In this document: positions 7,887 through 40,208 of the stretch, piece by piece
How the letters are laid out: every line of letters starts with the position of its first letter
Position numbering within the stretch: position 1 is the first letter of the stretch
Source of the DNA: Fibrobacteria bacterium
Lineage (GTDB): Bacteria; Fibrobacterota; Fibrobacteria; UBA11236
Assembly: GCA_043745805.1 (NCBI GenBank)
Contig: JAYTSD010000044.1
Coordinates: forward strand, 1-64,000
DNA: 64,000 nucleotides
Direction of reading: 5' to 3'
Notes under the pieces: generated by a model
The model's input: the letters and a program-made list of their open reading frames with translations, nothing else
Told to the model about the DNA's origin: nothing
Database searches by the model: none
Translations under genes and position numbers: made by a program

Positions 7887-8597
7887 ATGTTAACTTATAG
7901 GTTACTATTATTTTTCGCTTTATGCTTTGCAAGCTGCGAATCCAATCGTATCGCAGGAACCGAAGTGGGCAATCCAGAATTAACAGTTTCTGCCCGTTTT
8001 ATAATCATAGGCAATAATGATTCTCTCACGCTTACCGATATGCAATTTAAATGCATGGGAATGGCTTATCATAGTAATTCTACCGCTGATAGTATGCTAT
8101 GGAATATGCCTGCAGGTAATATGGTTAATCTTGCTGAGTCCTCTTTATCTGAAAATTTAAAACCCATCACTATTAAATCGGATAGCTGGAATAAAGCGGA
8201 AATGTTCTTGAATACGCCATTAGGCAACTCTAGCTTGCCCGATACCACGGATTTTAAAAATTGGACTAATCCACGTTATGCTAAAATTATTAAGCTTCAT
8301 CAAAGTGAAGAACAGCATTATCTTTTTGAGATGCCGCAAGGCATGAGAATTAAATTAATGTTTGATAAACCCACCATCAGCTCATGGATTAAAAAAGATA
8401 CCATGGCAATCACAATTCCTTTCGATGCGGTCAAATGGTTTTCCGTTTTAATGCAGGAACCTGCCTTGCAATCTCGTAAAGACGGGCTTGGGATGGACTA
8501 TCATATTTTAAGTTCAACCGAAAACACTAAGACTTATAATCAATTGAAGTCTATGTTACCGCAATGTTTTAAGTCGGATTCTACGGTAATGTTTTGA
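7887..8597 (+). CDS. Lipoprotein with AGTEVGNP motif after the lipid Cys
   Basis: Lipobox FASC, then ESNRIAGTEVGNP; starts 4 nt after the TIGR02147 stop. Confidence 0.8.
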   Translation: MLTYRLLLFFALCFASCESNRIAGTEVGNPELTVSARFIIIGNNDSLTLTDMQFKCMGMAYHSNSTADSMLWNMPAGNMVNLAESSLSENLKPITIKSDSWNKAEMFLNTPLGNSSLPDTTDFKNWTNPRYAKIIKLHQSEEQHYLFEMPQGMRIKLMFDKPTISSWIKKDTMAITIPFDAVKWFSVLMQEPALQSRKDGLGMDYHILSSTENTKTYNQLKSMLPQCFKSDSTVMF

Positions 8598-8605
8598 AAG
8601 ATCGA

Positions 8606-9211
8606 CTAGTTTTTAAACCAACCGGTAAAACTAAATCGGTCCATTTGATTCAATAGAACCTCATGTTCAAATTCACGACTTAAAAAACACACAAGAGTTC
8701 CACCTATTGGCTCAATATCTCTAGAAATTTCTTTATCATGAATCCTTAAGACGCCCCCATCTTCGCTTTTCCATTGATTATTTAAATACAGAATTATGGA
8801 AATCGTACGTTTATCATCATCCTTAAAACTATCCAAATGCCTTTTATAAAATCCCCCCTTGGGGTAACTTGCATAATGCCCTTCAAATTCTTTGAGCCCC
8901 AAATAAAGTGTCCGATTGAAAGCTTGTTTTAAGAAATTTATTTTTTTCCAAAGTTCTTTTTGAATTAAGTTTGCCAACAATTCATCAAGCCAAAAAATTT
9001 CATCTCGCCTAACTTGATCGTGAATACCTAAATCTATTCCTTTGCCTATGCCTGCGCGCTTAAACTCACCTAATTCGTAAATACGCTTAAGATCCCCTAA
9101 AACCTTTTGCAACATTTCCGCATTTAAAAAATTAGGAGTTACGCATATTCCAGTAGCACCTAGTTTTTTCGCAAGGGACTCAAATTTTATCAATACGGGC
9201 CTTCCCAGCAA
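8606..9211 (-). CDS. 2OG-Fe(II) oxygenase, PHD/EGL-9-like prolyl-hydroxylase type
   Basis: R.D.I.W; Y..GGFYKRHLD (HxD); LYLN..W...DGG.LR; EHEV (distal His); R.S.TGWF. Confidence 0.88.
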   Translation of the reverse strand: MLGRPVLIKFESLAKKLGATGICVTPNFLNAEMLQKVLGDLKRIYELGEFKRAGIGKGIDLGIHDQVRRDEIFWLDELLANLIQKELWKKINFLKQAFNRTLYLGLKEFEGHYASYPKGGFYKRHLDSFKDDDKRTISIILYLNNQWKSEDGGVLRIHDKEISRDIEPIGGTLVCFLSREFEHEVLLNQMDRFSFTGWFKN

Positions 9212-9243
9212 GTGTTCTTGCTTAAGTATTCTGACCTTAATAA

Positions 9244-9555
9244 AGTAGTTTCAATAGTCACATTTTAAACTATGCATTTTTCACCTTTGATGATGGAAGT
9301 TCACAATTCGAATTTAATCCTAATAATGGAACTAGTAACATAAAATTTTCTATTGGAGAAGGGGGTATCATTTCCGCGAGTTACACTAATGGAGTGTTCC
9401 GAGAGCTTTTTCAAATTCCGCTTGCAGATTTTCCCAATAAAAATGGACTAAAAGTTGTAGGAAAGAAATCTTTATTAGAAACAAAAGCATCGGGAAAGCC
9501 GTGGTTACCGGAATATGTTATAGAAAGTTATACGATAACTTTTAATCTGTCCTAA
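9244..9555 (+). pseudogene. Flagellar hook protein FlgE-like remnant (no start codon at its 5' end)
   Basis: Stop-to-stop frame +1 reads ...FTFDDGSSQFEFNPNNGTSNIKFSIGEGGIISASYTNGVFRELFQIPLADFPNKNGLKVVGKKSLLETKASGKP... Matches FlgE 'SI...G.I...YSNG..R.L.QI.LA.F.N..GL...G.....ET..SG.P'; the terminal D0 helix is missing. Confidence 0.7.
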
Positions 9556-9646
9556 CTATACTTTTTTCTCCTTATTTTAATTATTTTACCCCGAAGCGTA
9601 GTTAGTTAGTTGGAATTAATTAATTCAATATAAACTGTGAGGATAA

Positions 9647-10012
9647 ATGATGAATACCCTATTTCAATCCATTTTAGTCGGAATTGTTTTGGTATTTTGC
9701 TCTTGCGCACCCCCAATGGCAGGTTCTCCATCTTTTAGTATGGCAAGTGATCAAAATGAAAAGATGAATAAATACTACACCCCCATTAGCAGTGAAATTA
9801 AAGATAAAGACTGTTATTTTATTGGACCATTGTTTTTGATTGGTTTTGGAATCCAACCTAATCATGAAGCTCTTTTATCTAAGATGTTAGCAGAGGCAAA
9901 GGCAGATGTTTTATTAGATGCTACTTTCAAAACAAGTAGCTTTTGGTTTCCTTATTTATTTTACAACAATTGCGTTTCAATCGCTGGCACCCCTGCAAAA
10001 TTGAAGAAATAG
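9647..10012 (+). CDS. Small lipoprotein (TRL/YbjQ-like fold suspected)
   Basis: Lipobox FCSC; C..F.G.....ADVLLD....C.SI.GTP pattern with a Cys pair. Confidence 0.6.
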   Translation: MMNTLFQSILVGIVLVFCSCAPPMAGSPSFSMASDQNEKMNKYYTPISSEIKDKDCYFIGPLFLIGFGIQPNHEALLSKMLAEAKADVLLDATFKTSSFWFPYLFYNNCVSIAGTPAKLKK

Positions 10013-10021
10013 GAGCCATAA

Positions 10022-10486
10022 ATGAAAAATCTAATTTTATTAAGCGTTTCAATTTTTTTTATTTCCTGTGTACGAAACACCTTTCATACGGGAATTACCG
10101 CTTCCACAACCTTAAATTCAGTTAAAGACTATAAGATTTTAGGAAGGGTAGAGGAAACGTCCTGTAATCGATTCATTTTTGTTCTTTTTTGGGGTGCCGA
10201 CTATAAAAACATGTACAAAAAAACTTTTGAAGACGTCCAAGCACTAGGAGGCGATGCTATGATTGATTTTCAAGTTAGACCCAAAAATACTTTCTACGTA
10301 ATATCACCTTTTGGTGTTTTTTTTAGCGACTGTTGGGAGGCTACTGGAATAGCTATTAAAATGGGTACTGGAAACAGTTTTGATGAAAAACCTTCTCAAT
10401 GGGATAAAACTCCTGATTCAGAAAATTTCGAAAAGAAAAAAGTCGTCCCGTCAAAATGGGATGCCGCTCCAAAGAAAACACATTAA
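10022..10486 (+). CDS. Small lipoprotein (TRL/YbjQ-like fold suspected)
   Basis: Lipobox FISC; DYKILG.VE..SC...GGDAMID...C.EATG.AIK; similar layout to the upstream gene. Confidence 0.6.
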   Translation: MKNLILLSVSIFFISCVRNTFHTGITASTTLNSVKDYKILGRVEETSCNRFIFVLFWGADYKNMYKKTFEDVQALGGDAMIDFQVRPKNTFYVISPFGVFFSDCWEATGIAIKMGTGNSFDEKPSQWDKTPDSENFEKKKVVPSKWDAAPKKTH

Positions 10487-10543
10487 TATGAATACTTTGT
10501 ATCGTAATTGATGCGATTTTATTTTAAAACTTAAGAGGTAAAT

Positions 10544-11497
10544 ATGTTTAAAAAAATTCTACTCTCAATTGCTGTAATAGGGATCGCGTCCCAAGCCAAG
10601 GAAAAAATTTGCACTCCTTTTTTTGAGCTAATCAATGTCCCCGCCGATTACAAACTGTCCACCATTCGAATTCTTAAATCAAAAGTTGAGGGTAACAATT
10701 TCCGTGATATGATAACTCCCGGTAAAGATGAAGTACGTTACTCAGATATGAGTTTAGATTCAAATATTACTTGGGCTAAAGCAAATACATGTCAATATCT
10801 ATTGCTGGGATCTTTAACTCGATTAGGGGAAACGGTACAGTTCTCTGCAAAAGTTATCGATATTCAAACTAATAATAGCGTCTTTGGCAAAGCCTATAAA
10901 GCCAATGATCCCGATGATTTAGATCCCATCTTTGGTCAAGTAGCAAGTTCATTAAGTCAATCAAAATTTGTGTCTCAACAATCTGTCTACGATGTATCAA
11001 ATACCGATGTCGCCCATTTAAAGCAAAAACGTTCAAATACCAGTTATGTCATTGGCATTGGTTATTTAGGTTTCCCTGCACAATCGGATAATACCTTTGG
11101 ATTCAGTGGAGCCATGTTATGGGATGCCCGTAAATTTTTAGGTGAATTGGAATTAACCTCATTTACCATGGGAAATAATAATGGGGCTAGTTTAATTACT
11201 TTTGGTTTAAATTTATTCAAACCCTTAACCGATAATGAAAATGCTTTTTATCTCGGTGGTGGCACGGGCATAGGCATTTTTGGGCGAAAAACATGTAGCA
11301 CTGAATTGGGCTTTGAAACGTGCTCAGCTAAAGATGAAACTACATTGCTATTACAAGGAAGCGGTGGATATATGATCGGAAGAGCTTCTGACTTCAATGC
11401 ACGCTTGCAAGCTGATGTTAAAACTGGCTTAACTAATATCAATGGTTCGCTTCCCTTCGCACTTGGTTTTAGAGTTTTAATTGGTTTTGATTACTAA
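10544..11497 (+). CDS. Secreted protein: CsgG/TolB_N-like domain plus probable outer-membrane beta-barrel
   Basis: Signal peptide; YLLLGSLTRLGETVQFSAKVIDIQT; C-terminal amphipathic strands (FYLGGGTGIG, GFRVLIGFDY). Confidence 0.6.
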   Translation: MFKKILLSIAVIGIASQAKEKICTPFFELINVPADYKLSTIRILKSKVEGNNFRDMITPGKDEVRYSDMSLDSNITWAKANTCQYLLLGSLTRLGETVQFSAKVIDIQTNNSVFGKAYKANDPDDLDPIFGQVASSLSQSKFVSQQSVYDVSNTDVAHLKQKRSNTSYVIGIGYLGFPAQSDNTFGFSGAMLWDARKFLGELELTSFTMGNNNGASLITFGLNLFKPLTDNENAFYLGGGTGIGIFGRKTCSTELGFETCSAKDETTLLLQGSGGYMIGRASDFNARLQADVKTGLTNINGSLPFALGFRVLIGFDY

Positions 11498-11537
11498 CAC
11501 GATTATTCTCTCATTCTGAATATTGCATCAAAGCCAT

Positions 11538-11569
11538 AAAAAAAGCCACCCCTAGAAGTGGCTTTTTTT
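11538..11569. terminator. Bidirectional rho-independent terminator
   Basis: A7-GCCAC-8 nt loop-GTGGC-T7 between convergent genes. Confidence 0.85.
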
Positions 11570-11586
11570 ATGCTCATTAGATTTAA

Positions 11587-12426
11587 TTATTTAAGAACTT
11601 TGACTATTCCTTTATCAGTCTTGATAATGCAAATTCCCGTATTAGCCTTACCAATATTTAAGGAAGAAACATTACTCGACTTGCTAATAGTTTTTCCGGT
11701 AACATCTATAAGTTCAGCAGATTTAACCATTTGATTAAAGCGTACTTCATTTCCATTAATAATGGTTTTGAATTTATTCGCATTACTTAAGGATTTAATC
11801 CCAGTTACAGGAGTAATAATTACTGGACCTGCAACGATGGACGTTGGGTAAGTAACCTCGTCAATATTTAAAATAATTCCATCCGCAGTTTGTCCATTGT
11901 GAAGTATTTGTACAACGCCCAAGCTTGTGGAAGGAGCTCTAAAACCAAAATCAGCTGCAATAACAACTACAGTTGTTCCGGAAGCATCTTGAGCGGAAAC
12001 CGAATACTTGCTGGTAATTGGATTAATAGTAAACCATATATAATAGGATTTGGTATAATCAAATTTTATATCATTTGCAGGCTTACCGATTGCGGCTCCA
12101 TTGCGAGCATCAATAACGCCAGTCAAAGTTCCCGTATTACCAAAGCGAACATAAGTAGAATACTCACTCCATTGGGTGCAAGACGCGGTGGAGAGGGCTA
12201 TGCCATTATCAACTAGTCCTCCTCCGGCGGCAATACTTCCAGGAATATGATCGATAAAGTGTACGGTTACTCTAACAATGGAGTTAGCGGCAGTAATGGG
12301 ATTAGGGATTGTTATTTGTTGATCATTATTAAAATTCGCGCCAGTTTGAGCAAATGCTGTTAAAGACGAACATAGTACCATGCTGCTAATCAATGATTTG
12401 ACTTTAAAATTAAAACGATTTTTCAT
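11587..12426 (-). CDS. Secreted beta-sandwich protein with T9SS-like C-terminal domain
   Basis: Likely start MKNRF at 12426 (track starts at 12465); signal peptide ending AFA; tail ELIDVTGK...GICIIKTDKGIVKVLK. Confidence 0.7.
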   Translation of the reverse strand: MKNRFNFKVKSLISSMVLCSSLTAFAQTGANFNNDQQITIPNPITAANSIVRVTVHFIDHIPGSIAAGGGLVDNGIALSTASCTQWSEYSTYVRFGNTGTLTGVIDARNGAAIGKPANDIKFDYTKSYYIWFTINPITSKYSVSAQDASGTTVVVIAADFGFRAPSTSLGVVQILHNGQTADGIILNIDEVTYPTSIVAGPVIITPVTGIKSLSNANKFKTIINGNEVRFNQMVKSAELIDVTGKTISKSSNVSSLNIGKANTGICIIKTDKGIVKVLK

Positions 12427-29562: not shown

Positions 29563-31809
29563 CTAGCGCCTTACAATTTGATGCACGGTTTGGCCTTCTT
29601 TACTATTAACTCTTAAGAAATAAATTCCTGCGGGTTGATTACTTAGGTTAAAACTGGACTCTAAACGCGTAGACGATTTATTTAATTGAATTTCTTTTAG
29701 TGTTTGACCGCAAATACTGGTAACCGAAATATCTACTTCCCCAATATAATCCGAATTCAAACTAAAGTTGAAGAGGGTGTTTTCGGGATTGGCAAATACT
29801 TTAAATTTTTTCACATTCCCTTTTTTAATAATTCCTTGAATAGTACCATCAAGGTTACGTGGCACAATACCCCAATTGGGAACTTCATTAAAACCACTAT
29901 TTAATACTGCTGGCCAATTACTAGCTCCGGTTAATCTAGCCCATGCGGCCGTGGCACCTGTGGCCTTGTGATCCACTGCATAGGCAATAGCGGGCATTAA
30001 ATTTCCCCAAAATCCCGTTGCCGCCGCAGTAGGATCACTTCCCGAAGATCCTTCCAAAATATTAGTGCAAGCAGGGGCTGGAGTAAATGTCGCTTTATAA
30101 ACGGCATCCCAAGTTTTAAACCATCCACTCGGTGCACCGCTTTTTCCATCACTGGTTTTTAAAGTATAAGTAGAAGCTTGCGTAAAACAAAACCCACTAC
30201 TTGTTCCTAAAATCCCTACTACTGCCGAATACATATAATCGCGAACTTCATTATAAATAGTCATATCGGCTAAGGGTTCAAGGTCTGAGCCCATACCGAT
30301 GGATTGAATAAAAAAATGTTGCTGCCAAGGGGCTACGGTTCCCGGACCATAAAGATTAGCATCATATTCATAGAGATAGCCTATTCCCGCAGGGTTAACC
30401 GCATTCTTTACCTTTTTTAAATGCTGCATATTATTTGCGAGTAACAAACTATAATCTGCCGCGATATCATCGCCTGCTGGCGCAATGCCCACATACTGTG
30501 TTAAAGTTCGCATACACCAAGCATAGCCTCGTGTTTGGCCATTATAATAACGGGATGTTCCTAAATTAGGGGACGAAGGATCCGTTGTCCAATCTACCGC
30601 GCCTGCCATGAGATAAGCGGTGGCAACTTGATTTTCCATGGTTTCGAGATAAAAATAATCGCCGGTAATTATATAGGCGAGATAGCCACCAGATCCATGA
30701 TGCGAGTTTTCCCAGCTTAAATTTCCCGCACCCGAATTGGTACTACCACCTTGATCCGCTCCATCAAGACTCCAATTGGGTTTGTTCGAAGGTTTAGTCG
30801 GAAGATTGGTCCCACTCTCATTCCATTCAATAGCATAATTATTAATAGCTTTAGCATTGGCCAGCACGGCTTTATAAGCACGTGGATCACCGAGAGAGGT
30901 TATAAACATCGCATCCCATAGCGGCATAAGACCTAATTGCGCTTGATAACCCGTTTCCCCCATATTCACGGTCCAATCTCCATTTTGATTTGGAGCATAA
31001 TTTTGATAAAGTCCATTTAATACTATTGCGCTTGGGGTATTAATCATATAGTTTGGAACCAACTTAGCGAATTTTAAATATTGCGTATCATGTCTAGGTG
31101 TTACCTGTGGATCCCCGCCAACCCAACCTTCAGCCGTCCAACGGGTATGCGCATAATGCGTTAAACTTGCACCCGCATTATTATAAACTGTTGTTCCACC
31201 AATAATAATGGTGGGAATATAATTTTTATTAGCCGTAGTTTTGTCGAGATAGCCATTTTCAATAACCGTACGTATCCAAATTTTTCCGCCTTTATATAAG
31301 CGAACATAAAACCACACCGCTAAGGTAGCATCGCTGCCCACAGCGGATCGATAATGCGCTTCAACCATTTCGGGACCAATAATCCAAGTGCGAAAAGGCG
31401 TAGCTAAAAGACTAGATAAATTAACTGTTCCTATAGTGCCCAATTTAACGGAAGCAGAAGGATTAGCGGTGGCAATATTTGCAGCGACAAGATTTACACC
31501 TGAAGGAATTAAGGAACTATCCACATTTACCGTTAAGGGGACTCCCGAAGTCAAAGCCACTTGTCCCGAAGCAATAGCATGTTTAACGCTGCCATCATTC
31601 CAGCGTCTTTTAACTATAACTTGCGAGGTAACAATATTTAATTTCGGAACATTCGGAATATCCCCTTTTTTAAAACCAAGCCCCACCGTAAAAGGCAATG
31701 TTCCACTGGTTGCTGAGGTTAATTGAAAAGTAGTGATGGGAGCAGAATAAGTATTGAGACTAATAATGAATTGAGCCAAAACGAAGAGGATGATTTTATT
31801 CATAGTCAA
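29563..31809 (-). CDS. Secreted protein with T9SS-like CTD; possible polysaccharide lyase-like alpha/alpha barrel
   Basis: Signal peptide; PFTVG..F.KG and RWNDGSVKHA (PcRGLX/YetA-like N-domain pattern); W-rich helical core; tail F.NP...PAGIYFLRV...HQIVRR. Confidence 0.6.
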   Translation of the reverse strand: MTMNKIILFVLAQFIISLNTYSAPITTFQLTSATSGTLPFTVGLGFKKGDIPNVPKLNIVTSQVIVKRRWNDGSVKHAIASGQVALTSGVPLTVNVDSSLIPSGVNLVAANIATANPSASVKLGTIGTVNLSSLLATPFRTWIIGPEMVEAHYRSAVGSDATLAVWFYVRLYKGGKIWIRTVIENGYLDKTTANKNYIPTIIIGGTTVYNNAGASLTHYAHTRWTAEGWVGGDPQVTPRHDTQYLKFAKLVPNYMINTPSAIVLNGLYQNYAPNQNGDWTVNMGETGYQAQLGLMPLWDAMFITSLGDPRAYKAVLANAKAINNYAIEWNESGTNLPTKPSNKPNWSLDGADQGGSTNSGAGNLSWENSHHGSGGYLAYIITGDYFYLETMENQVATAYLMAGAVDWTTDPSSPNLGTSRYYNGQTRGYAWCMRTLTQYVGIAPAGDDIAADYSLLLANNMQHLKKVKNAVNPAGIGYLYEYDANLYGPGTVAPWQQHFFIQSIGMGSDLEPLADMTIYNEVRDYMYSAVVGILGTSSGFCFTQASTYTLKTSDGKSGAPSGWFKTWDAVYKATFTPAPACTNILEGSSGSDPTAAATGFWGNLMPAIAYAVDHKATGATAAWARLTGASNWPAVLNSGFNEVPNWGIVPRNLDGTIQGIIKKGNVKKFKVFANPENTLFNFSLNSDYIGEVDISVTSICGQTLKEIQLNKSSTRLESSFNLSNQPAGIYFLRVNSKEGQTVHQIVRR

Positions 31810-32046
31810 CCCTTAAAAAAAGGAATAAGTAAAAAGTTTCTTGGCAGCAATATTAGCCATTGCTAGGGTTAAACTGCAAATAATGTTTAACCCTCACCAA
31901 AAAATAACTGCCTTGCATAGGATTAAGTATCGCACGGAATGGTTGGCTATGTATAGGGGTTTTATCTCCAATTTATCATTTGTTTAGTGAACAAATTTCG
32001 TTCCAAGCTCAAATTGTGGAAATTCCACTAGACCTGATACTTGTAT

Positions 32047-32910
32047 TTAAGGAAAGGGAATTGACTCCAAATTAAAAGTGACGGTGTCTTCGCCTGCATC
32101 TGCTCTGAAAATATTTACCGGAATAAGCATTCTCCACTGAGCATGATTCGCATCGATAAAACGACAAACTGTATTGTAATCAAGCCGGTAGATTTTCATG
32201 TAGGCGTATATGTCGCTGGAATTTTCAGAAAAAGGAATCCAAGCTGTGCTATCCTCTAAATACTGAATCCAGGGTGAAATTATTTTTAGGGATGTAGTAG
32301 GATGCATATAAAAATCAATACGCCCATCTGGAGTGATGTAGGCTTTAAAGGTTCCGTTACCTCCAAAGATGGTATCGTTAGTGCCTTGGTAATTTCCCTT
32401 ATAAATGCCAATCCATTTCGAACTTATTACAGAATTTTTATAGGTAACCTTCATAAATTTAATCACCAATTGAAGATCATTTATTTCATAATCAGTTAAG
32501 GATCCAATTTCTCCCATATCTATGGTTTCGCCAAAAGATAATTTTGCAAAATGAGAAAAATCTACATGGCCACGATATTCAAATACCGGATTTTCAACAA
32601 ACCCATAATTCACATTATTCGAATCTTTTTTTATCAACTGAATAACAAAAGTAAAAAAATCATTTTTACCAATTATCTCCTGATTATAGATATTACTCTC
32701 AATATTTGCCATTTTCAGGGTAACTTTCCCTAAATCCTGAGTTAAGCTAAATCGAATCTTTTGATTGTAAGCAAGACCGAGATCCGAAAAGACATGTCTT
32801 TTTTCAATTCCCAAATGCTTATCGGGACCAGGATTTTCCAAGCATCCATTAAGAACGCCAAGCAAAAAACAAAAAAGGAAATTAACGCCTATGCTACTGA
32901 TAAACTTCAT
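32047..32910 (-). CDS. Hypothetical lipoprotein, paralog B
   Basis: Likely start MKFISS at 32910; lipobox LNGC; homologous over its length to 32959..33774. Confidence 0.8.
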   Translation of the reverse strand: MKFISSIGVNFLFCFLLGVLNGCLENPGPDKHLGIEKRHVFSDLGLAYNQKIRFSLTQDLGKVTLKMANIESNIYNQEIIGKNDFFTFVIQLIKKDSNNVNYGFVENPVFEYRGHVDFSHFAKLSFGETIDMGEIGSLTDYEINDLQLVIKFMKVTYKNSVISSKWIGIYKGNYQGTNDTIFGGNGTFKAYITPDGRIDFYMHPTTSLKIISPWIQYLEDSTAWIPFSENSSDIYAYMKIYRLDYNTVCRFIDANHAQWRMLIPVNIFRADAGEDTVTFNLESIPFP

Positions 32911-32958
32911 ATCCATTCTCCAAAAAGAAATTTCCAAACGAAATGTTTAAGGCAAAAA

Positions 32959-33774
32959 TTAACGTGGAGTAATGGATTCAAAATTAAAAGTAACCGTATC
33001 TACTGCCAACAGACTTTGCCTATAATAATGAGGATTTAACATCATCCATTTACCATGTTTCGCATCTATAAGCCCACCAAGAACATTAAACAATATATGA
33101 TGTTCGCTATAATAATATTCCGCATAATGCCAACCCTCATTATAATAAGGTGCAAAAGGAATCAAGGCTATAGAATCATTTACAAAGGTATTAGCATGCA
33201 AAAAAATATCCGTATTCCCCTGCGCATCAATATAAGCGTGAAAATTTCCTGCATGACCATAAAGGGTATCGCTGGTTCCTAAATAGGTTCCCTTATAAAT
33301 ACCACTCCATTTCGAATTTAAAATCGAATCCTTGTACGAAGCTTTTATGAAATTAATTTGCAATTCGAGATCTTGTATTTCATAATCAACTAGGGATCCA
33401 ATGAGTCCCAAATTTCTGGTTTCATAAGGTGAAAGTTTTTCCATATGACCATAATATTCAAAAACTGCATCTTCCAAAAAATAACGTGTGTCCAAAAGAT
33501 AAGGATTTATTTTTTTTAATTGAATAATAAAATCAAGACTATCATAGATTTCAGGACCTCTAAAATCATTGGTAACTTTCAAGTTAATCTTCCTCAAATC
33601 TTGGGTCAAATCGAATTCAATTGCCTCATGATTTGGAAGTACTGAAGAGAAGTGGGCATGTCTCTTTTCAATTCCCAAATGCTTATCGGGACCAGGATTT
33701 TCCAAGCATCCATTAAGAACACCAAGCAAAAAACCAAAGAAGAAATAAACACCGGTTTTGATTTTTAATTTCAT
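32959..33774 (-). CDS. Hypothetical lipoprotein, paralog A
   Basis: ATG 33774 overlaps the caspase stop (ATGA); lipobox LNGC; shares LENPGPDKHLGIEKRH, VFEY.GH, SKW.GIYKG.Y.GT.DT and DTVTFN.ESI with paralog B. Confidence 0.8.
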   Translation of the reverse strand: MKLKIKTGVYFFFGFLLGVLNGCLENPGPDKHLGIEKRHAHFSSVLPNHEAIEFDLTQDLRKINLKVTNDFRGPEIYDSLDFIIQLKKINPYLLDTRYFLEDAVFEYYGHMEKLSPYETRNLGLIGSLVDYEIQDLELQINFIKASYKDSILNSKWSGIYKGTYLGTSDTLYGHAGNFHAYIDAQGNTDIFLHANTFVNDSIALIPFAPYYNEGWHYAEYYYSEHHILFNVLGGLIDAKHGKWMMLNPHYYRQSLLAVDTVTFNFESITPR

Positions 33775-35846
33775 ATGCGTATACCCAAAAAAAATCCATT
33801 CCATTGAATACCTTGATAATCACCGAACCAATTTTCTCCATCCCTATTAGGGTTTAAATTTGGACGAGTGGCTTTATCCCAAATTTCTGCATTATAATTC
33901 ATACCACCAAAAATGGAAAAATAACGTATCGGGGAATAACCTAAAAATAAACGTAACCTTGAATGATAACTGGTATTGTCCATATCTTGGTCATTATAAA
34001 TTATTCCCACCCCCAAATCCGCATCTGCAAAAAATGGCTTACGGGGGAAATGCATTCCTATACCTGCACTACCTCCCCAAAGATGGTGAGGACTAAGCCC
34101 TTTCATATCGAATGAGAAATAATTGTAATTGTGAGGTCCTCCTAATAGAAAGGCGGTACGTAACATAGACCTTTCATCAAAAGTCATTTCCACATTGTGC
34201 ATGCCATTACCAATCAAATTTATCAATCCTATTACGCCACCTTTACTATGCTTGGCATAATTAATGAGGCCAACTTGTATTCCCTCTGATTCTTTATCAA
34301 CATTTATAACTCCAGCTTGTAAGCCTTTATTTTCATTAGATATATTCAACAAACCCAACTGCAAACCCTTTGCTATTCCCGTATAGTTAACCATCCCAAT
34401 TTGCAAACCTTCCAGTGTATCTACGGCATTAACCAAGCCAGAAATTTGTACACCACAATGTTGCTGCAATTCCGAATTAAAAAGTATTGCAAATTGCAAA
34501 CCCTTCGATCCGCCTTCACTGCTATTTACCATCCCACATTGCAAACCATTCATGTTACCTAAAGTTTTATTTAATCCTAAGCACAGTTGTAATCCTTGAA
34601 TTGAAAAAGCTTTTCCAACTAATAGATTCAAAGAGACATTATGAGAATAGGTAACAGAATCTGTTCCAGGATAACCTACTGAGGGCACTATAGCGGCTCT
34701 GAATGGGATCCATGTTTCTCTTTGAATAGGTGACCTTTCAATATTAGTATTAGTGTCTAGATCCGTATTCAGCGAATCAGTTCCTCCACGACTTTGAGTT
34801 TTCTCTTTGGCTACCGGAGTAAAGTTATTCATACTCACCGGTAAGTGAGCGGATTTTTCCACATTCACTAAAGCCCGAAACAATGACCCGCCTTGTTTTA
34901 GACTGATATCATACATTCCAGGTTCTAAACCTAGTTCTACATTTCGACCCAATGTCTTCTGCAATTCAGCCACCAAGGCACCTGAAGCGGCTCTTACAAA
35001 AAGTCGTCCTTCCATTTTTGCATCCATAACCAATCCAGCTGAAGTGCCACGCAAATCGGTAAGTACCAAATCACCGGTTCCAGTAAGACGCATATCGTAA
35101 CTTGGATGTTGCGCCCCCGCTTGGCTACCCTCGGTTTGAGCCAAAGTTTCTTGAAAAGCAAATTCATAAGCTTCACCTAAGGTCACTTTGCCATCTTGAT
35201 TTCTATCAGCGGCGCCTCTTAATCCCGTCACTAAAAAATGTGTAAAATAGGAAGCGCGAATACGTTCCGATTCTTGCGCGGATTCTGTTCCTGAACTTGC
35301 GGTTAAAAAAGCATACCCAGAAAGATTAGCGCTTTCATCTACTGAAAATGCCGGTAAACGGCTTCCACCCTTTATGCGAGTGAGTGCTCCGGATGCACAA
35401 GCATCTACCACGGCTAAACGAATTTTAGCGGGAGCGGCATCAATGCGCGATCGAAAATCGGGATAAGACAATTTTTCTGCGCCGAACATCAATCCATTTT
35501 CATCGGAATGGCCGGAAAAATAAACTAATAATTCGGGTTTCCATCCGCCATCCTTTGCATTAGCAATGCGGCCACGCAAAATTTGCATCGCTGCTAAAAA
35601 TTGTGCCAGCGTGGGTTCTTTCAATAAAACCATATCGTCGCGTGATACTCCTCCCAATTCTACTAATACATTGGAAAAGGTACTGGCATCGGTATTGGCA
35701 TACCGTAGCTTGACGCGAGAAGAACCACCATCATTCGCTCCCACTACCAGAGCAAAACGCCGAAACCCAAGTTCTTTATCTGGATTAACATCGGCGTTAC
35801 ATAATAATAAAGCAATACCCAGTAGGAAAATCCCAACGAATTTCAT
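33771..35846 (-). CDS. Exported caspase-family (peptidase C14) protein with GLQ repeats and probable C-terminal outer-membrane barrel
   Basis: Signal peptide; RFALVVGAN.G, LRYA..DA, YFSGHS (His), VDACASG (Cys), EF-hand-like DRNQDGKVTLGE; about 9 G[LVI]Q.G..N repeats; amphipathic strands ending GFFLGIRI. Confidence 0.9.
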   Translation of the reverse strand: MKFVGIFLLGIALLLCNADVNPDKELGFRRFALVVGANDGGSSRVKLRYANTDASTFSNVLVELGGVSRDDMVLLKEPTLAQFLAAMQILRGRIANAKDGGWKPELLVYFSGHSDENGLMFGAEKLSYPDFRSRIDAAPAKIRLAVVDACASGALTRIKGGSRLPAFSVDESANLSGYAFLTASSGTESAQESERIRASYFTHFLVTGLRGAADRNQDGKVTLGEAYEFAFQETLAQTEGSQAGAQHPSYDMRLTGTGDLVLTDLRGTSAGLVMDAKMEGRLFVRAASGALVAELQKTLGRNVELGLEPGMYDISLKQGGSLFRALVNVEKSAHLPVSMNNFTPVAKEKTQSRGGTDSLNTDLDTNTNIERSPIQRETWIPFRAAIVPSVGYPGTDSVTYSHNVSLNLLVGKAFSIQGLQLCLGLNKTLGNMNGLQCGMVNSSEGGSKGLQFAILFNSELQQHCGVQISGLVNAVDTLEGLQIGMVNYTGIAKGLQLGLLNISNENKGLQAGVINVDKESEGIQVGLINYAKHSKGGVIGLINLIGNGMHNVEMTFDERSMLRTAFLLGGPHNYNYFSFDMKGLSPHHLWGGSAGIGMHFPRKPFFADADLGVGIIYNDQDMDNTSYHSRLRLFLGYSPIRYFSIFGGMNYNAEIWDKATRPNLNPNRDGENWFGDYQGIQWNGFFLGIRI

Positions 35847-36745
35847 TTTCCCTCCTGAGGGCGAGCATGTGAAGAAGATATTTCTTTCTCAATAGTATAA
35901 GTGTATTGCCTAAATGTACTGGGCAAGGCCATTAAAGTATCGGAAACATTTTGGCTGAAAGCAAATTCCCTGCGAATCAATCTCAGCAGACTATCGCAAG
36001 CAAATGGTTCGGATGAAGTAAGCAAATAAAATCGTTCATACTTAGGAGCCTGATCTAATCGAAATGCATTCGGAAGCCCTTGCATATTACCCTCTTGTAG
36101 TTTTAAGGCTGGCCCCTCCGTTTCAGGAAAATGTAAAGTCATATTTCCCGCACCGTCACGAGAAAATATCATTCCATAAACAGATTTTCGATTATGATAA
36201 AATACCTGCAAAATATCTCCGGCCTTGGCCTTATCATGAGGAAGTAGTAATTCCGTTCCTAATTTGGTTTTTCGGAAAATCACTAAACCCGATTCAGTAC
36301 CTTTTAAAAGAATATCAGGAGTTTCCGTAGCTAGTGGAATAAGGCTTGCATCGGATCCACGAATTTCAACTTGATTTTGCATTGGTCGCAAGGTTAAAAA
36401 AATACCCACTATTAAAGTAGCCAATGCAGGAAATCCATAACGTAGTTTAAACAAATTCTGTCTAAGTGTTTGCCGTCCATTTTCAGCACCGAGTAGGGAA
36501 TATTTTTTTTGTTTAAGATGATTAAGGCGAGTTTGCTGGCGACGTTGAATAGCTATTGCCATTGCTTTAGGTTCATAGGCTGTTAAAATCTCTTCATTCG
36601 ATTTTCGAATACCGTTAACGCGCTCTTGCAATACGCTATCTGTTTCACAAAACATTTGAATCTGTGCATTGCGTTTTGCATCTAATTCACCTGCTACAAA
36701 GCGCTCTAACATTAAATCGGATATTTCATTTAATTCTTGTTTCAT
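35843..36745 (-). CDS. Anti-sigma-like membrane protein with periplasmic DUF4384-like domain
   Basis: N-terminal anti-sigma-like helices (ISDLMLERFVAGEL), single TM (FPALATLIVGIFLTL), GD.LQV.Y...IFSRDG.G..TLHFP...LPNAFRLD.AP..ERF; coupled to the sigma gene. Confidence 0.8.
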   Translation of the reverse strand: MKQELNEISDLMLERFVAGELDAKRNAQIQMFCETDSVLQERVNGIRKSNEEILTAYEPKAMAIAIQRRQQTRLNHLKQKKYSLLGAENGRQTLRQNLFKLRYGFPALATLIVGIFLTLRPMQNQVEIRGSDASLIPLATETPDILLKGTESGLVIFRKTKLGTELLLPHDKAKAGDILQVFYHNRKSVYGMIFSRDGAGNMTLHFPETEGPALKLQEGNMQGLPNAFRLDQAPKYERFYLLTSSEPFACDSLLRLIRREFAFSQNVSDTLMALPSTFRQYTYTIEKEISSSHARPQEGK

Positions 36746-37266
36746 TACGAATCCTTTCCCATCAAGCTTTGGGAGTTACTCTTCTTTTCCCATGCATTGC
36801 CACCTTTTTGGGCAATATGGGTTTTTAAATTTTCTAACCGTCGACGAACGCCCGCCGCCGATATTTCTACTACTTCACTGATTTCAGAATAAGTCAAGCC
36901 ATCCACATAATGCAAAACCGCCATAACCTTGGTACTTTGCGGTTGCCGATGAAATATCCAGTCTATTATGCGCTTCACTTGAAAAGTTTTTTCAATGTCT
37001 TCGGAAGAAGCAATGGTTGCTAATAGTTCATTGTTTTCGCGATACCGATTTTCAGCCAGATTGATTTTATCTAAACAAATTCGCGTGGCAGCGGTAAATA
37101 AATAACTGGTAGGATATTCAATTTCTGAAGGATGATTATTGAGTAGGCGTAGAAAAACCTCCTGCATGGCATCCAAAGCACTGTCTTTATCTCCCAGCAT
37201 TTGCTGGCATCGTCTTAAAACCATGGGTCCATGCTTCCTATACAATTCCTCAATATCCATCACCAA
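36745..37266 (-). CDS. ECF-type sigma-70 factor
   Basis: LYRKHGPMVLRRC..MLG....A.DAMQEVF; YLF..ATRICL; LHYVDGLTYSEI..V..S..GVRRRL. Confidence 0.92.
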   Translation of the reverse strand: MVMDIEELYRKHGPMVLRRCQQMLGDKDSALDAMQEVFLRLLNNHPSEIEYPTSYLFTAATRICLDKINLAENRYRENNELLATIASSEDIEKTFQVKRIIDWIFHRQPQSTKVMAVLHYVDGLTYSEISEVVEISAAGVRRRLENLKTHIAQKGGNAWEKKSNSQSLMGKDS

Positions 37267-37312
37267 TTGAACTTTCCTTTCGGAACCCCTTTAAAAGGCG
37301 CCCTTCAAATAT

Positions 37313-37341
37313 GTAACGGCTCAGAAAACCAAAAGCGTCAC
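37313..37341 (-). promoter_or_regulatory. Candidate ECF-dependent (autoregulatory) promoter
   Basis: Minus strand GTGACG-N17-CGTTAC about 46 nt upstream of the sigma start; ECF-like -35/-10 layout. Confidence 0.45.
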
Positions 37342-37500: not shown

Positions 37501-37524
37501 AAAAAAAGGCCCCTAATTAGGGGC
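37501..37524 (-). terminator. Rho-independent terminator after di-heme gene 1
   Basis: GCCCCT-AATT-AGGGGC stem followed by a T7 run on the minus strand. Confidence 0.7.
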
Positions 37525-37569
37525 TATAAATTTAAAAATATTTAATTGAGGGGGTGGATGAGGATCCCG

Positions 37570-37660
37570 CGGTTCACAGGGGCATGTGGATATGCCCCAC
37601 AATTACCGTGAAGCCGAAGCCAGGGGGAGTATCTTTAGGGTTACCTAAATTATTCTCCCC
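37570..37660. repeat. GC-rich double-hairpin intergenic element (REP/MITE-like)
   Basis: CGGTTCAC..GGGGCAT-loop-ATGCCCC..GTGAAGCCG and GGGGAG..TTTAGG-loop-CCTAAA..CTCCCC. Confidence 0.45.
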
Positions 37661-37670
37661 CTAAGAATGC

Positions 37671-40208
37671 TTATAATGAATTTAAGAATTTAACCACTGC
37701 CGCTGATTCACCAGTGGACAAGGCTTTGAATTTTGCAGCTGCTGCCGCGCCTTCACCACCATGCCAGAGAATAGCTTCTTCAAGAGTACGAGCACGTGCA
37801 TCATGCAAGTAATTTGCATCCGGTTTGCAAGTTTGTTTTTGAATTAAACCCACTACACCACCCGTTGCGCAAGGAGAATTACCAATGCCCCATAGTGGTG
37901 GCGTACGCCATTCCGCACCCGTGGCTTGACCTTCGGGTAAATTATCAGCCAAACCGGCACCCATATCATGAAGTAATAAGTCCGTATAAGGATGAATGGT
38001 TTGATCGCGAAGCTCTGCTTTAGGAGCGAAAGCGCTAGTCTTTAAGGTAGGAATGTGACAAGCCACACAACCCATGCTGGTAAATAAGGCTTCACCTTGT
38101 AAAGCCACTGGGTCTTTATAATCGCGACGAGCGCGTATGCCTAATAAGCTGATATAATCCACTAAATGACTTAAGCTGCTATCCGCAAGCTCCGTACCCG
38201 TTGCACCACAATTGGTTTCTTCCGAACCGCAATCGGGCTTAGGTAACAAAGAAGTCATCACGCCCATATCCGTATTGAAGGCGCCAGCAATTTGATGTTT
38301 CACATCGACTTTACCGGCTTTCCATCCAAAGCGACCCATACGTGGCTGACTGGTTACGGGGTCATTTACAATATTAATACGACCCGAAATACCATCTCCA
38401 TTTGCATCATTGGGGTCTTCCAAGGCTTGAATAGCCGTTTCTGGAATAGCTTCCAATAATCCCATGCCTACTAGTTGAGGTGTTGTGCGAACCGAATAAT
38501 TAATGGGAGTAACACCTGTGAAACCGTAATTTGCTTTACGCAAACCATTACTTTCCACCCAACTCAAAATTTTACCTTCGCCTTCAGAATTTCCAGCCGT
38601 ATTTTGCGGTTGTAATACGCCGCCTAATTTTGGATGAGGATTACCATTGGCATCGCCTACTTTTACCACCATATTATAAAGTGGTCCGCCCACAACTGGC
38701 GTTGTACCACGACCATTACGAATATGACATTGATTACAAGATGTATTAATATAATTGGGACCACCTTTTCCGGCATTTTCTTCCCAAATTGGATTCTCGG
38801 GTTCATCATGTGCACCTGTAATAAAATTGGTATGTAATACGCGACGTCCTAAAACAAAGGGCTGTGCATTTTCACCATCAATATTGGTGGCCATTTGCAT
38901 GAAATTTTTGTCGGGTTCATCGGATATTTGTTTATGCAAAGTTGTGCGTCCGCCTAACCAAGTAGCCTCGTCCATTTTATGTGAGTTTTCTCTTTCCGAA
39001 GCTTGATTTTCCCATACTCCAACAGTGTCCCAGGGAACCATACCGCCCACACCTACTTCATACAAAAATACGGTGCCATAGTAGTTATCGCGACCCACGG
39101 GAGGATTTGGCATAGTGAAATCTAAAAATTGGCTAGCTTCAATTTCCATAAACTGACCTACTGCAAGTGGAGATTCTTTGCCGTCAAGCCCAATCGATGT
39201 TTCAATAGTGTAAATGTATTTCCATTGATGTCCTTGATCACTTATTTTATTGTGATTCTCATCATAAGTACCCACGCCTAATTTTGTAAAGCGTGGCGCA
39301 TAATTGCCATAATATTGCGCTTCACTTCCACGACCCGAATACCAAGCACGGAATTCTGGTAATTGATCAAGCTTCCATTCGGTTACCCAACTCACTTCCA
39401 TAGTATGGCCACCCTTGGCTACATGGTCAGTGATGATATAACGAGCTGTACGAAGTTCCCAATAATGCGGAAGATAATGATCATGACTTTGGAAATTATT
39501 TTCACGGCTATGACGGTCGCGTGCTCTATCGCCCCAACGGGTAACAATGGCGGTACCTATATCTTCGCGGACTAAACGATTCAATTTGGTATTTCCGCTG
39601 AATAATGGAATTATTTTTGGCGTACTGAAATCTACGGTTAAATTTGTGCCCTCTACGATTTGATATACTTGCGTCACATAACCAGTTTTGCTACAAACAA
39701 TAGAAGCCGAAATGGCTGCCGTTTTCGCTAAGGTATTCTGTGTAGCCATGCCTTCGAAAACCAAACCCGAGCCGGTATTTACGAAGCGTCTTTTAAAGGA
39801 TTCTTTGGGAGTAGTGATAGTTATAAAATACAATCCTTTGTTTTGTTGACTGAAAGCAACATGCTCTCCGAGCTTAATAGATTGGTTAAACACCTTTTGA
39901 CCCTTGGTATTTAATATCGTCACCGTGGCTCTTTCTCCAAAAGCAAGAGGGATTTGTGATAGCGAAAAATTTTGTTGGGAATTAGGATTGGATTTATAAA
40001 TGGAATTAACCAATCCATTTAAGGTCAACTTTCCTGCATTATCGGAAGTTCCCGTAGGTCCTCCATTTTGCGCACAAGTTACGCCTGCAATCGGTGCATT
40101 CTTTGCATCTTGCAGCGTAACAATTACTTCTGAGTCGGCCACCTGAAACAGAGTAACCGTTAACAGCGTTGCCAATGTTGTGTTTAGTCCCATTTGCTTT
40201 CCTTTCAT
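37671..40208 (-). CDS. Secreted di-heme oxidoreductase-family (DUF1111/DHOR) protein, paralog 1
   Basis: Two CxxCH (CNQCH, CVACH); PQLVGMGLLEAIP; DP.D.NGDGISGR; GRFGWKA; PYTDLLLHDMG; EWRTPPLWG; YLHD.RARTL.EAI.WHGGE. Confidence 0.92.
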   Translation of the reverse strand: MKGKQMGLNTTLATLLTVTLFQVADSEVIVTLQDAKNAPIAGVTCAQNGGPTGTSDNAGKLTLNGLVNSIYKSNPNSQQNFSLSQIPLAFGERATVTILNTKGQKVFNQSIKLGEHVAFSQQNKGLYFITITTPKESFKRRFVNTGSGLVFEGMATQNTLAKTAAISASIVCSKTGYVTQVYQIVEGTNLTVDFSTPKIIPLFSGNTKLNRLVREDIGTAIVTRWGDRARDRHSRENNFQSHDHYLPHYWELRTARYIITDHVAKGGHTMEVSWVTEWKLDQLPEFRAWYSGRGSEAQYYGNYAPRFTKLGVGTYDENHNKISDQGHQWKYIYTIETSIGLDGKESPLAVGQFMEIEASQFLDFTMPNPPVGRDNYYGTVFLYEVGVGGMVPWDTVGVWENQASERENSHKMDEATWLGGRTTLHKQISDEPDKNFMQMATNIDGENAQPFVLGRRVLHTNFITGAHDEPENPIWEENAGKGGPNYINTSCNQCHIRNGRGTTPVVGGPLYNMVVKVGDANGNPHPKLGGVLQPQNTAGNSEGEGKILSWVESNGLRKANYGFTGVTPINYSVRTTPQLVGMGLLEAIPETAIQALEDPNDANGDGISGRINIVNDPVTSQPRMGRFGWKAGKVDVKHQIAGAFNTDMGVMTSLLPKPDCGSEETNCGATGTELADSSLSHLVDYISLLGIRARRDYKDPVALQGEALFTSMGCVACHIPTLKTSAFAPKAELRDQTIHPYTDLLLHDMGAGLADNLPEGQATGAEWRTPPLWGIGNSPCATGGVVGLIQKQTCKPDANYLHDARARTLEEAILWHGGEGAAAAAKFKALSTGESAAVVKFLNSL

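Follow-up and report, generated by a model that had tools for sequence, protein, structure and literature searches.

What does a caspase-type protease do when it is exported from the cytoplasm and encoded in one operon with a sigma factor and an anti-sigma factor? Almost no bacterial caspase homologue has a known substrate or role, though such proteins are abundant, and extracytoplasmic function (ECF) sigma systems are a main route of envelope signalling, with the site-1 protease of many of them not known. This study addressed the question at a five-gene module located at positions 32047..37341 of a 64,000-nucleotide (nt) stretch of contig JAYTSD010000044.1 (assembly GCA_043745805.1; hereafter the window), from a sediment bacterium of the Fibrobacter group. 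We propose that the module is an autoregulated envelope signalling system acting through regulated proteolysis, in which the caspase would serve as the dedicated site-1 protease of the anti-sigma factor, and we assign this reading a probability of approximately 0.45. That the caspase and the anti-sigma ectodomain constitute a functional pair of some kind seems considerably more likely.

The five open reading frames (ORFs) are co-oriented on the minus strand, as are all the features of the module located below. The first gene encodes an ECF (group 4) sigma factor (36745..37266; 173 amino acids, with candidate starts TTG 37266, GTG 37263, and ATG 37260). It is followed by the gene of a single-pass anti-sigma factor (35843..36745; 300 amino acids), the start of which overlaps the sigma stop codon as TAATG at 36745. 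The anti-sigma gene is joined through an ATGA at 35843-35846 to that of an exported caspase-fold (C14) protease with a predicted outer-membrane anchor (33771..35846; 691 amino acids), and the stop codon of the caspase gene overlaps the start of lipoprotein A (32959..33774; 271 amino acids) as ATGA at 33771-33774. The true start of lipoprotein A is ATG 33774, and a longer ORF start at 33804 was set aside. Lipoprotein B (32047..32910; 287 amino acids), a paralogue of lipoprotein A, follows after a 48-nt gap with no overlap. A first-pass annotation of this DNA had described five co-oriented genes of which the first four are translationally coupled, and the three overlapping junctions read as claimed.

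The gene neighbourhoods were surveyed next. The locus survey, which took one genome per species, yielded at least 601 pattern matches and at least 556 confirmed relatives, and the best-scoring 80 loci were examined (numbered with the prefix L). In all 80, an anti-sigma homologue, identified by phmmer with the window proteins, lay directly upstream of the caspase gene. These loci come from Fibrobacterota, Myxococcota, Acidobacteriota, Latescibacterota, Spirochaetota, and Fermentibacteria. An ECF sigma gene was present in 72 of the 80, which corresponds to 72 of the 76 that could be judged; the four misses left out of this second count lie at a contig edge just upstream (L042, L043, L072, and L081). 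Four other loci (L044, L066, L069, and L078) truly have no adjacent sigma gene, and in these the anti-sigma-like gene and the caspase gene were still together. L061 differs in that its sigma/anti-sigma pair occupies the opposite strand, with the caspase gene preceded by a second, short DUF4384-like ORF. Stop and start codons overlapped by 4 nt between anti-sigma and caspase in 48 of the 80 loci and between sigma and anti-sigma in 35 of the 72, counts that use naive longest-ORF starts. These neighbourhoods support the view that the sigma, anti-sigma, and caspase genes form one conserved functional unit; the triplet, which the first-pass annotation had put forward for such a survey, proved to be conserved.

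The module was also found to be widespread. A search with the caspase architecture returned 2173 proteins at E<=0.001 among 8000 candidates scored, and the named matches belonged to Fibrobacterota, Myxococcota, Fermentibacteria, and Spirochaetales. Searched against 1.84 billion cluster representatives, the anti-sigma profile matched 8291 proteins at E<=0.001, including 2314 at E<=1e-30. The search method strongly affected this number: a single-sequence search with a word index gave 6 proteins, a profile search 201, and the exhaustive search 8291. In a sample of the organism's own phylum, the anti-sigma profile matched 144 of 201 genomes (109 of the 152 of high quality) and 40 of 61 genera, usually with one to five module copies per genome; this tally includes G000 and one unpublished genome, G194.

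The neighbourhoods bear directly on a different explanation, in which the caspase is an output of the pathway rather than part of its switch. The anti-sigma factor would then sense an envelope cue through its DUF4384-like external domain and be processed by housekeeping proteases, while the caspase and the lipoproteins would be sigma targets and the caspase would act on other envelope or surface proteins. A position downstream of a sigma/anti-sigma pair is typical of regulon genes, and the content downstream of the caspase gene varies among relatives, comprising lipoproteins, secreted proteins, or a second caspase. Nevertheless, the anti-sigma-like and caspase genes were adjacent in 80 of 80 loci, even in the four sigma-less loci and in L061. 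Because this adjacency persists where the sigma gene is absent or on the other strand, the unit appears to be the pair and not a sigma factor plus its target. We regard the output explanation as unlikely.

Several loci of the survey deserve separate mention. The sigma-less loci L044 and L069 belong to Archangiaceae. In six loci of Latescibacterota (L011, L040, L045, L049, L054, and L070; approximately 8500-12000), the genes behind that of the caspase encode, in this order, a secreted protein of approximately 560 amino acids and a second caspase, a paralogue of 574-628 amino acids. On a Myxococcus sp. contig (L066, 1927-9121), the genes for a GGDEF protein, a sigma-54 activator response regulator, and an epimerase/GNAT fusion precede the anti-sigma-like and caspase genes. 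This order resembles actA-actB-actC-actD of the M. xanthus act operon, with which the locus may be identical; if it is act, a sigma-less branch of the family would be under sigma-54 control. An apparent anti-sigma/caspase fusion in a genome from a long-read metagenome (L058, 6086-9295) was rejected: tblastn split the anti-sigma part over two frames, and the fusion is probably a sequencing frameshift.

The caspase carries an N-terminal hydrophobic signal (residues 1-22) and matched Pfam Peptidase_C14 with 33.2 bits against a cut-off of 21.4. Its fold was modelled with AlphaFold2 on 76 sequences (mean predicted local distance difference test, pLDDT, 87.7). The caspase/metacaspase-type catalytic domain (residues 28-267; 35046..35765) contains His113 in the sequence SGHS and Asp148 and Cys150 in DAC, and these three residues were present in 81 of 81 caspases, that is, in the window and all 80 loci. 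With VIA, the best match of this domain was Arabidopsis metacaspase 4 (6w8r; Z 20.1, root-mean-square deviation 2.9 over 208 residues), followed by caspases, MALT1, and legumain with Z values of 17-19 (18-19 for the caspases); Foldseek agreed, returning caspase-3, MALT1, and Yca1. The fold, the His-Cys dyad, and the Pfam score place the protein in peptidase family C14. The VC2662 family (NF047437) matched with 45.1 bits, below its cut-off of 140 bits. In the profile of the family, DsCaSG aligns to DSCHSG of solved metacaspases, so that Asp148-x-Cys150 corresponds to their DSC. Cleavage after Arg or Lys is characteristic of metacaspases and orthocaspases, whose acidic S1 pocket includes the Asp located two positions ahead of the Cys.

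Behind the catalytic domain, the model contains an immunoglobulin (Ig)-like sandwich at approximately residues 260-345 and a disordered linker (pLDDT <50 at residues 350-374). A predicted beta-helix containing LA_2272-type repeats then extends over about residues 376-575 and runs into the C-terminal barrel (residues 376-545 correspond to 34212..34721). Eight GxQ repeats of roughly 14-16 residues each occupy residues 418-522, and the family LA_2272_repeat (NF047436) matched four stretches with 58.2 bits against a cut-off of 25. The beta-helix resembled the beta-helical protein 3p4g (VIA Z 15.3, deviation 1.9 over 165 residues). Among relatives, the number of GxQ repeats ranged from none to approximately 17, and the repeat-free forms have approximately 520-550 amino acids and end in a weak, sub-threshold OMP_b-brl match. 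In the model, the repeats look like a beta-helix stalk of adjustable length. The earlier suggestion that they sense a ligand received no support.

The C-terminal part (residues 545-691; 33774..34214) is predicted to fold into an outer-membrane beta-barrel of approximately 8 strands. Its best VIA match was the N-terminal barrel of OprF (4rlc; Z 15.6, deviation 2.6 over 123 residues), and NspA (1p4t), OmpW (2f1t), and the OmpA transmembrane domain (2ge4) followed with Z values of 13.9, 12.2, and 11.8; the last strand reads F-F-L-G-I-R-I. The prediction thus assigns the C-terminus to the small 8-stranded barrels of the OmpA/OmpW/NspA type. An 8-stranded barrel has both of its ends in the periplasm and no lumen for a passenger, and for this reason the protease domain should be suspended in the periplasm, where the anti-sigma ectodomain is also expected. 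The signal peptide, the intact His/Cys dyad, the repeats (named GLQ in the first-pass annotation and here GxQ), and the barrel-like end were all seen again, and the outer-membrane anchoring proposed there agrees with the modelled topology.

The proposed partner of the caspase was analyzed through an AlphaFold2 model built on 53 aligned relatives (mean pLDDT 83.3). Residues 10-89 form a cytoplasmic helical domain with pLDDT >90. Hydropathy identified a single hydrophobic stretch, the transmembrane helix at residues 101-119 (36389..36445), and a comparable segment was present in 53 of 53 relatives. Coupled downstream of an ECF sigma gene and possessing one transmembrane helix, as the first reading of the DNA had noted, the protein is probably a class I single-pass anti-sigma factor. 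Outside the membrane, a disordered tether of approximately residues 120-147 (pLDDT <50 at 127-146) leads to an Ig-like ectodomain of approximately residues 148-290, with a beta-sandwich modelled at 153-287.

An external DUF4384-like domain had been expected in this protein. The ectodomain was indeed modelled beyond the transmembrane helix, whereas DUF4384 (PF14326) itself matched the window protein only below threshold, with 21.3 bits against a cut-off of 27. Because the window protein falls below the cut-off and yet 13 of the 53 relatives match the family at E<=0.01 (best 5.7e-6), we term the ectodomain DUF4384-like and consider it a divergent relative of that family. Foldseek gave generic Ig-like matches only, at E 6e-4 or weaker, and VIA gave Z 9.1 for an S-layer protein, 8.9 for a Pycsar AGS-C domain, and 7-8.3 for macroglobulin domains. 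The beta domain filled these fold-search lists, which therefore do not cover the N-terminal helical domain. A profile search against solved structures gave no match with E under 0.5, and neither Csx30 nor DdvA nor a known anti-sigma factor was among the results. In the N-terminal domain, the motif L-E-R-x-x-x-G-E-L is conserved, and zf-HC2 matched 1 of the 53 relatives.

The tether of the anti-sigma factor cannot otherwise be aligned and has low pLDDT, but it ends in Lys148-Gly149 (36299..36304), and each of these two residues was present in 53 of 53 sequences; in 47 of 53, an Arg stands two positions ahead of the Lys. We regard this bond as the candidate site-1 cleavage site. The Lys lies 29 residues beyond the transmembrane helix in the window and a median of 22 residues (range 9-38) beyond it in relatives. 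The same R-x-K-G motif occurs in the caspase, at the start of the disordered loop behind the catalytic Cys (residues 160-173, pLDDT <50). There, Lys159-Gly160 (35367..35372), within R157-x-K-G-G, is a candidate autoprocessing site: in the caspase alignment, Arg157 was found in 76 of 76 sequences, Lys159 in 72 of 76 (the other four having Arg), and Gly160 in 76 of 76, and the count over the window and 80 loci gave Lys159 in 81 of 81. Arg353-Gly354 (34785..34790), located in the disordered stretch that links the Ig-like domain to the beta-helix, is a candidate site for release from the anchor. Arg353 was found in all 76 aligned sequences and Gly354 in 75 of them, and the larger count gave Arg353 in 80 of 81. 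A paralogous module of this genome has retained K-G at each of the three sites. The motif common to the anti-sigma tether and the post-cysteine loop, together with the predicted periplasmic location of both parts, is a further argument against the caspase being a mere output.

The genome also encodes an RseP-type M50 site-2 protease (C46:112244-113482; 213 bits, an open frame of 453 amino acids). A complex prediction for caspase residues 25-350 and anti-sigma residues 120-300, to which both alignments were supplied, scored 0.00, a result that counts neither for nor against an interaction.

On the basis of these findings, we propose the following sequence of events. The ECF sigma factor would be held at the inner membrane by the cytoplasmic N-terminal domain of the anti-sigma factor, whose periplasmic part would consist of the short disordered tether ending in the invariant Lys-Gly and of the Ig-like, DUF4384-like domain. 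From the outer membrane, the metacaspase-type cysteine protease would hang into the periplasm on its 8-stranded barrel, through the beta-helix stalk and the disordered linker. An envelope signal would activate the protease, probably by self-cleavage at K159-G160 and R353-G354, and the activated caspase would cut the anti-sigma factor after Lys148. The remaining periplasmic stub of approximately 29 residues would be a substrate for the RseP-type site-2 protease, and the freed sigma factor would transcribe its own operon, including the two lipoprotein genes in this lineage, from the GTGAC...CGTT promoter described below. We infer the binding of the sigma factor by the anti-sigma factor, the Arg/Lys specificity of the protease, every cleavage event, and the signal. 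The trans-envelope scheme of the first-pass annotation, with the caspase as site-1 protease, fits the conserved unit, the shared compartment, the invariant dyad, the candidate site, the RseP homologue, and the promoter, and we retain its cleavage step as a proposal; its ligand-sensing repeats are without support. In a more specific version, the caspase would be a zymogen parked on the outer membrane by the barrel and a stalk of lineage-specific length, such that a disturbance of the outer membrane or of the envelope spacing leads to self-cleavage at Arg353-Gly354 and Lys159-Gly160 and then to the cut after Lys148. We consider this envelope tripwire possible, albeit doubtful.

Several observations weigh against assigning the caspase a site-1 role. 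The window anti-sigma factor reads I-L-L-K-G and thus has Leu in place of the Arg, and an invariant Lys-Gly at the very edge of the folded ectodomain could be structural and not scissile. The Arg/Lys specificity is carried over by analogy from metacaspases, not from this protein. The N-terminal domain of the anti-sigma factor gave no match to a Pfam anti-sigma model and contains no H-x3-C-x2-C zinc motif. A gene located behind a sigma/anti-sigma pair is often no more than a member of the regulon. Finally, the 80 loci are the best-scoring of at least 556, and weaker relatives may lack the partners.

Autoregulation was assessed from the sigma factor and its promoter. The sigma protein matched Pfam Sigma70_r2 (2.6e-10; 40.4 bits, cut-off 24) and r4_2 (3.4e-6; 27 bits, cut-off 25.7) as well as TIGR02937 (63.7 bits, cut-off 42.9), and the Pfam/NCBIfam scan gave no region-3 match; the protein is thus an ECF (group 4) member of the sigma-70 factors. 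An ECF-type self-promoter is located approximately 47 nt upstream of the sigma start (37313..37341), with the sequence GTGACG-N17-CGTTAC (equivalently GTGACGC-N16-CGTTAC). Ahead of the sigma gene, the window and the close relatives L003, L004, L005, and L006 have GTnnC[AG]C-N16-CGT[TC] in common. A related, less strict pattern, [GC]T[GC]AC-N17-21-GT[GTC]T (in short form GTGAC-N17-GTGT), was found in 42 of 73 upstream regions, against 2.4 on average and never more than 9 after shuffling; the matches lay mostly 41-57 nt before the start codon and mostly read GTGACA[CG]...GGTGT. The window is not counted among these 42, as its -10 box reads CGTTA. Its spacing, GTGAC-N19-GTT, is that of L008, L016, and others. 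Because the same two boxes recur at the same spacing upstream of the sigma genes of relatives, the promoter noticed in the first pass is more than a chance match, and its conservation supports an autoregulated ECF promoter.

A whole-genome scan with two forms of the promoter motif gave 10 and 6 matches. The operon's own promoter, recovered by both forms, was the only match to precede a sigma gene, and the scan revealed no convincing second target. The operon itself may be the whole regulon, a point that favours the output explanation considered above. Four sequencing runs were listed as containing this DNA, all of them DNA runs of sediment metagenomes from one study, with no RNA run among them.

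The proposed mechanism has parallels in systems already described. The E. coli sigmaE/RseA/DegS/RseP pathway likewise comprises an ECF sigma factor, a single-pass anti-sigma factor, and RseP, a homologue of which is encoded here, and a periplasmic cut near the membrane is what we propose. In RseA, the transmembrane helix spans approximately residues 101-118 and DegS cleaves between Val148 and Ser149, a geometry that is nearly matched by the helix at 101-119 and Lys148-Gly149 of the window protein. DegS, however, is an inner-membrane PDZ serine protease, whereas the candidate here is an operon-encoded, outer-membrane cysteine protease of the caspase fold, and there is no RseB homologue here. 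We place the module outside the sigmaE/RseA/DegS/RseP family, whose way of working it would follow, as its candidate site-1 enzyme differs in both fold and location.

The arrangement also recalls FecA/FecR/FecI, in which an outer-membrane protein, an inner-membrane anti-sigma factor, and an ECF sigma factor form a three-part trans-envelope set. An alternative of this type is contact signalling in which the caspase does not cleave the anti-sigma factor. The outer-membrane protein would bind the DUF4384-like domain and shield the anti-sigma factor from other proteases, or would itself be held inactive by that domain as by a pseudo-substrate, and loss of the contact, for example through a disturbed outer membrane, would be the signal. 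An outer-membrane-anchored partner facing an inner-membrane anti-sigma factor is the layout of cell-surface signalling. The stalk varies in length, and the ectodomain weakly resembles macroglobulin-type Ig domains (Z approximately 8). TonB-dependent transducers, according to the accessible text of PMC11637429, bind the anti-sigma factor and protect it from proteolysis. Unlike in the Fec system, the outer-membrane partner here carries a protease, and the Pfam/NCBIfam scan of the five proteins found no TonB-dependent receptor, FecR, or signalling domain. The catalytic dyad is moreover invariant in 81 of 81 caspases, which argues that proteolysis matters. We consider contact signalling of this kind quite unlikely.

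Two further systems join a caspase-superfamily protease to the control of a sigma factor. In M. xanthus, the available parts of PMC11506125 and PMC6061681 describe DdvA as an anti-sigma factor fused to a periplasmic caspase-like TPR-CHAT protease, with RseP acting once the periplasmic domain has been removed; (self-)cleavage in a juxtamembrane flexible linker was proposed there as the site-1 processing and is unproven in that system. DdvS/DdvA and the present module thus both comprise an ECF sigma factor, a transmembrane anti-sigma factor, and a periplasmic caspase-superfamily protease, the location of which is predicted here. The DdvA protease, as those parts present it, is fused to the anti-sigma factor and acts in trans within a dimer if at all, whereas the window encodes a separate C14 protein without TPR. 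The DdvA-type architecture was not found: the anti-sigma factor of 300 amino acids has an Ig-like ectodomain and the protease is the product of its own gene. DdvA-like proteins are reported in the same available text to be narrowly distributed, in contrast to a module present in thousands of sequence clusters.

In the type III-E craspase, as described in the sections available of bioRxiv 10.1101/2022.08.17.504292, Csx29 (TPR-CHAT) cuts a linker in Csx30, which binds RpoE, and one group of Csx30 C-terminal domains belongs to DUF4384, a family often found fused to protease domains. Both there and here, a caspase-like protease stands beside a sigma-controlling partner with a DUF4384 or DUF4384-like domain, although cleavage is only proposed for the module. 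Craspase, on the same source, is cytoplasmic, RNA-guided, and CRISPR-linked, whereas both partners of the module are predicted to be in the envelope. The present caspase does not have the craspase/Csx30 layout: its N-terminal signal sequence and outer-membrane barrel argue that it is not cytoplasmic, a conclusion for which no search aimed at cas genes in the window was made.

A further alternative is that the protease is a cell-death or anti-phage effector, a killing or defence enzyme whose production the sigma/anti-sigma pair would control, as has been suggested for other caspase homologues of bacteria. A defence island is under the control of DdvS/DdvA, and the caspase matched the NCBIfam family "caspase, EACC1-associated type" (NF047832) with 52.6 bits, below the cut-off of 140 bits. 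The context of programmed cell death was also that in which a 2012 survey treated metacaspase operons, as far as the accessible text of PMC3501461 goes. Against such a role, no defence genes were seen among the neighbours examined, which encode a protein sorted by the type IX secretion system (T9SS) and a di-haem peroxidase-like protein, and the protease is predicted to be exported and membrane-anchored. With matches in 144 of the 201 phylum genomes, the module resembles a housekeeping signalling device and not a patchy defence island. An effector function appears highly improbable.

The same survey (Asplund-Samuelsson et al. 2012) reported, in its accessible text, four M. xanthus metacaspase operons with a common sigma-70-family factor and the same operon structure in Anaeromyxobacter, Haliangium, Sorangium, Ralstonia, and Fibrobacter. 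These operons are very probably the same module as that described here. That text gives the association only and makes no mention of an anti-sigma factor, DUF4384, an outer-membrane anchor, a promoter, a cleavage site, or a mechanism. The main text of the ECF classification paper PMC7826278 does not mention C14, peptidase, Fibrobacter, or cysteine protease; in the available part of its supplement, DUF4384 appears only for the ECF25 anti-sigma factors and caspase is not mentioned. Our literature searches, with most subscription journals outside their reach, found no published mechanism for the sigma/anti-sigma/caspase triplet. The module is real and widespread, and it has been in print only as an association since 2012.

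The module offers a specific candidate protease-substrate pair, a candidate scissile bond at Lys148-Gly149, and a promoter for a reporter. The pair, the bond, and the promoter are conserved in thousands of sequence clusters and at least six phyla, which, according to the accessible part of the 2012 survey, include the cultivable Myxococcus and Fibrobacter. The question of what bacterial caspases do therefore becomes directly testable. If the envelope tripwire were true, a bacterial caspase homologue would for the first time have a defined physiological substrate, and regulated intramembrane proteolysis would have its first site-1 enzyme of the cysteine-protease type. DUF4384 might in that case be a module that generally serves caspase-fold proteases as a docking site or a substrate. 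On this view, the envelope system, DdvA, and craspase/Csx30/RpoE would be variations on one ancient theme in which a caspase cuts an anti-sigma factor, linking envelope signalling to the caspase-versus-anti-sigma logic of CRISPR type III-E and DdvA.

The window genome contains a second, divergent triplet (L083, 3960-9065; contig C17:117959-123064), in which all junctions overlap. It encodes an ECF sigma factor, an anti-sigma factor of 283 amino acids with H-x3-C-x2-C, and a caspase of 526 amino acids without GxQ repeats, and a coupled protein of 646 amino acids without a family match follows downstream. No GTGAC...CGTT promoter was found in the region upstream of this triplet.

The lipoproteins, by contrast with the conserved core, are specific to a narrow lineage. 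Both have an LNGC lipobox at residues 20-23, and the two proteins are 45% identical overall. A Pfam/NCBIfam family was not matched, and the best Atlas score, 0.81, was uninformative. Homologues of lipoprotein A were found by phmmer only at the Fibrobacteria loci L003 and L005, with a similar N-terminus in L006. The two genes are thus, on the distribution of their homologues, a lineage-specific addition in close Fibrobacteria relatives, and their inclusion in the module by the first-pass annotation did not hold for the conserved core. The signal peptides and the first 17 mature residues of the two proteins are nearly identical despite the overall divergence: the mature parts begin C-L-E-N-P-G-P-D-K-H-L-G-I-E-K-R-H (N-termini at 32836-32910 and 33700-33774). 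The lipoproteins encoded downstream of the caspase in L003, L005, and L006 keep the start C-x-(E/Q)-N-P-x-(P/T)-D. Gene conversion could account for the near identity, as could conservation of a tether or of a sorting motif. Across positions 32000-34000, which take in the lipoprotein genes and the 3' portion of the caspase gene, the G+C content drops to 0.33-0.36, compared with 0.40-0.46 on both sides.

At the other end of the module, a terminator-like hairpin of the upstream gene (37509..37524, minus strand) marks the 5' boundary of the operon, and a GC-rich, partly palindromic stretch (37530-37640, minus strand) lies between the stop codon of that gene and its terminator. The di-haem peroxidase-like neighbour (37671-40208, minus strand; 845 amino acids; DHOR, 1.7e-65) has a segment resembling a T9SS sorting domain near its N-terminus (residues 74-143; TIGR04183, 31 bits, cut-off 23). 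Such a position is unusual, as the domain is normally C-terminal; in the neighbour at 29563-31809, it is found in this normal place.

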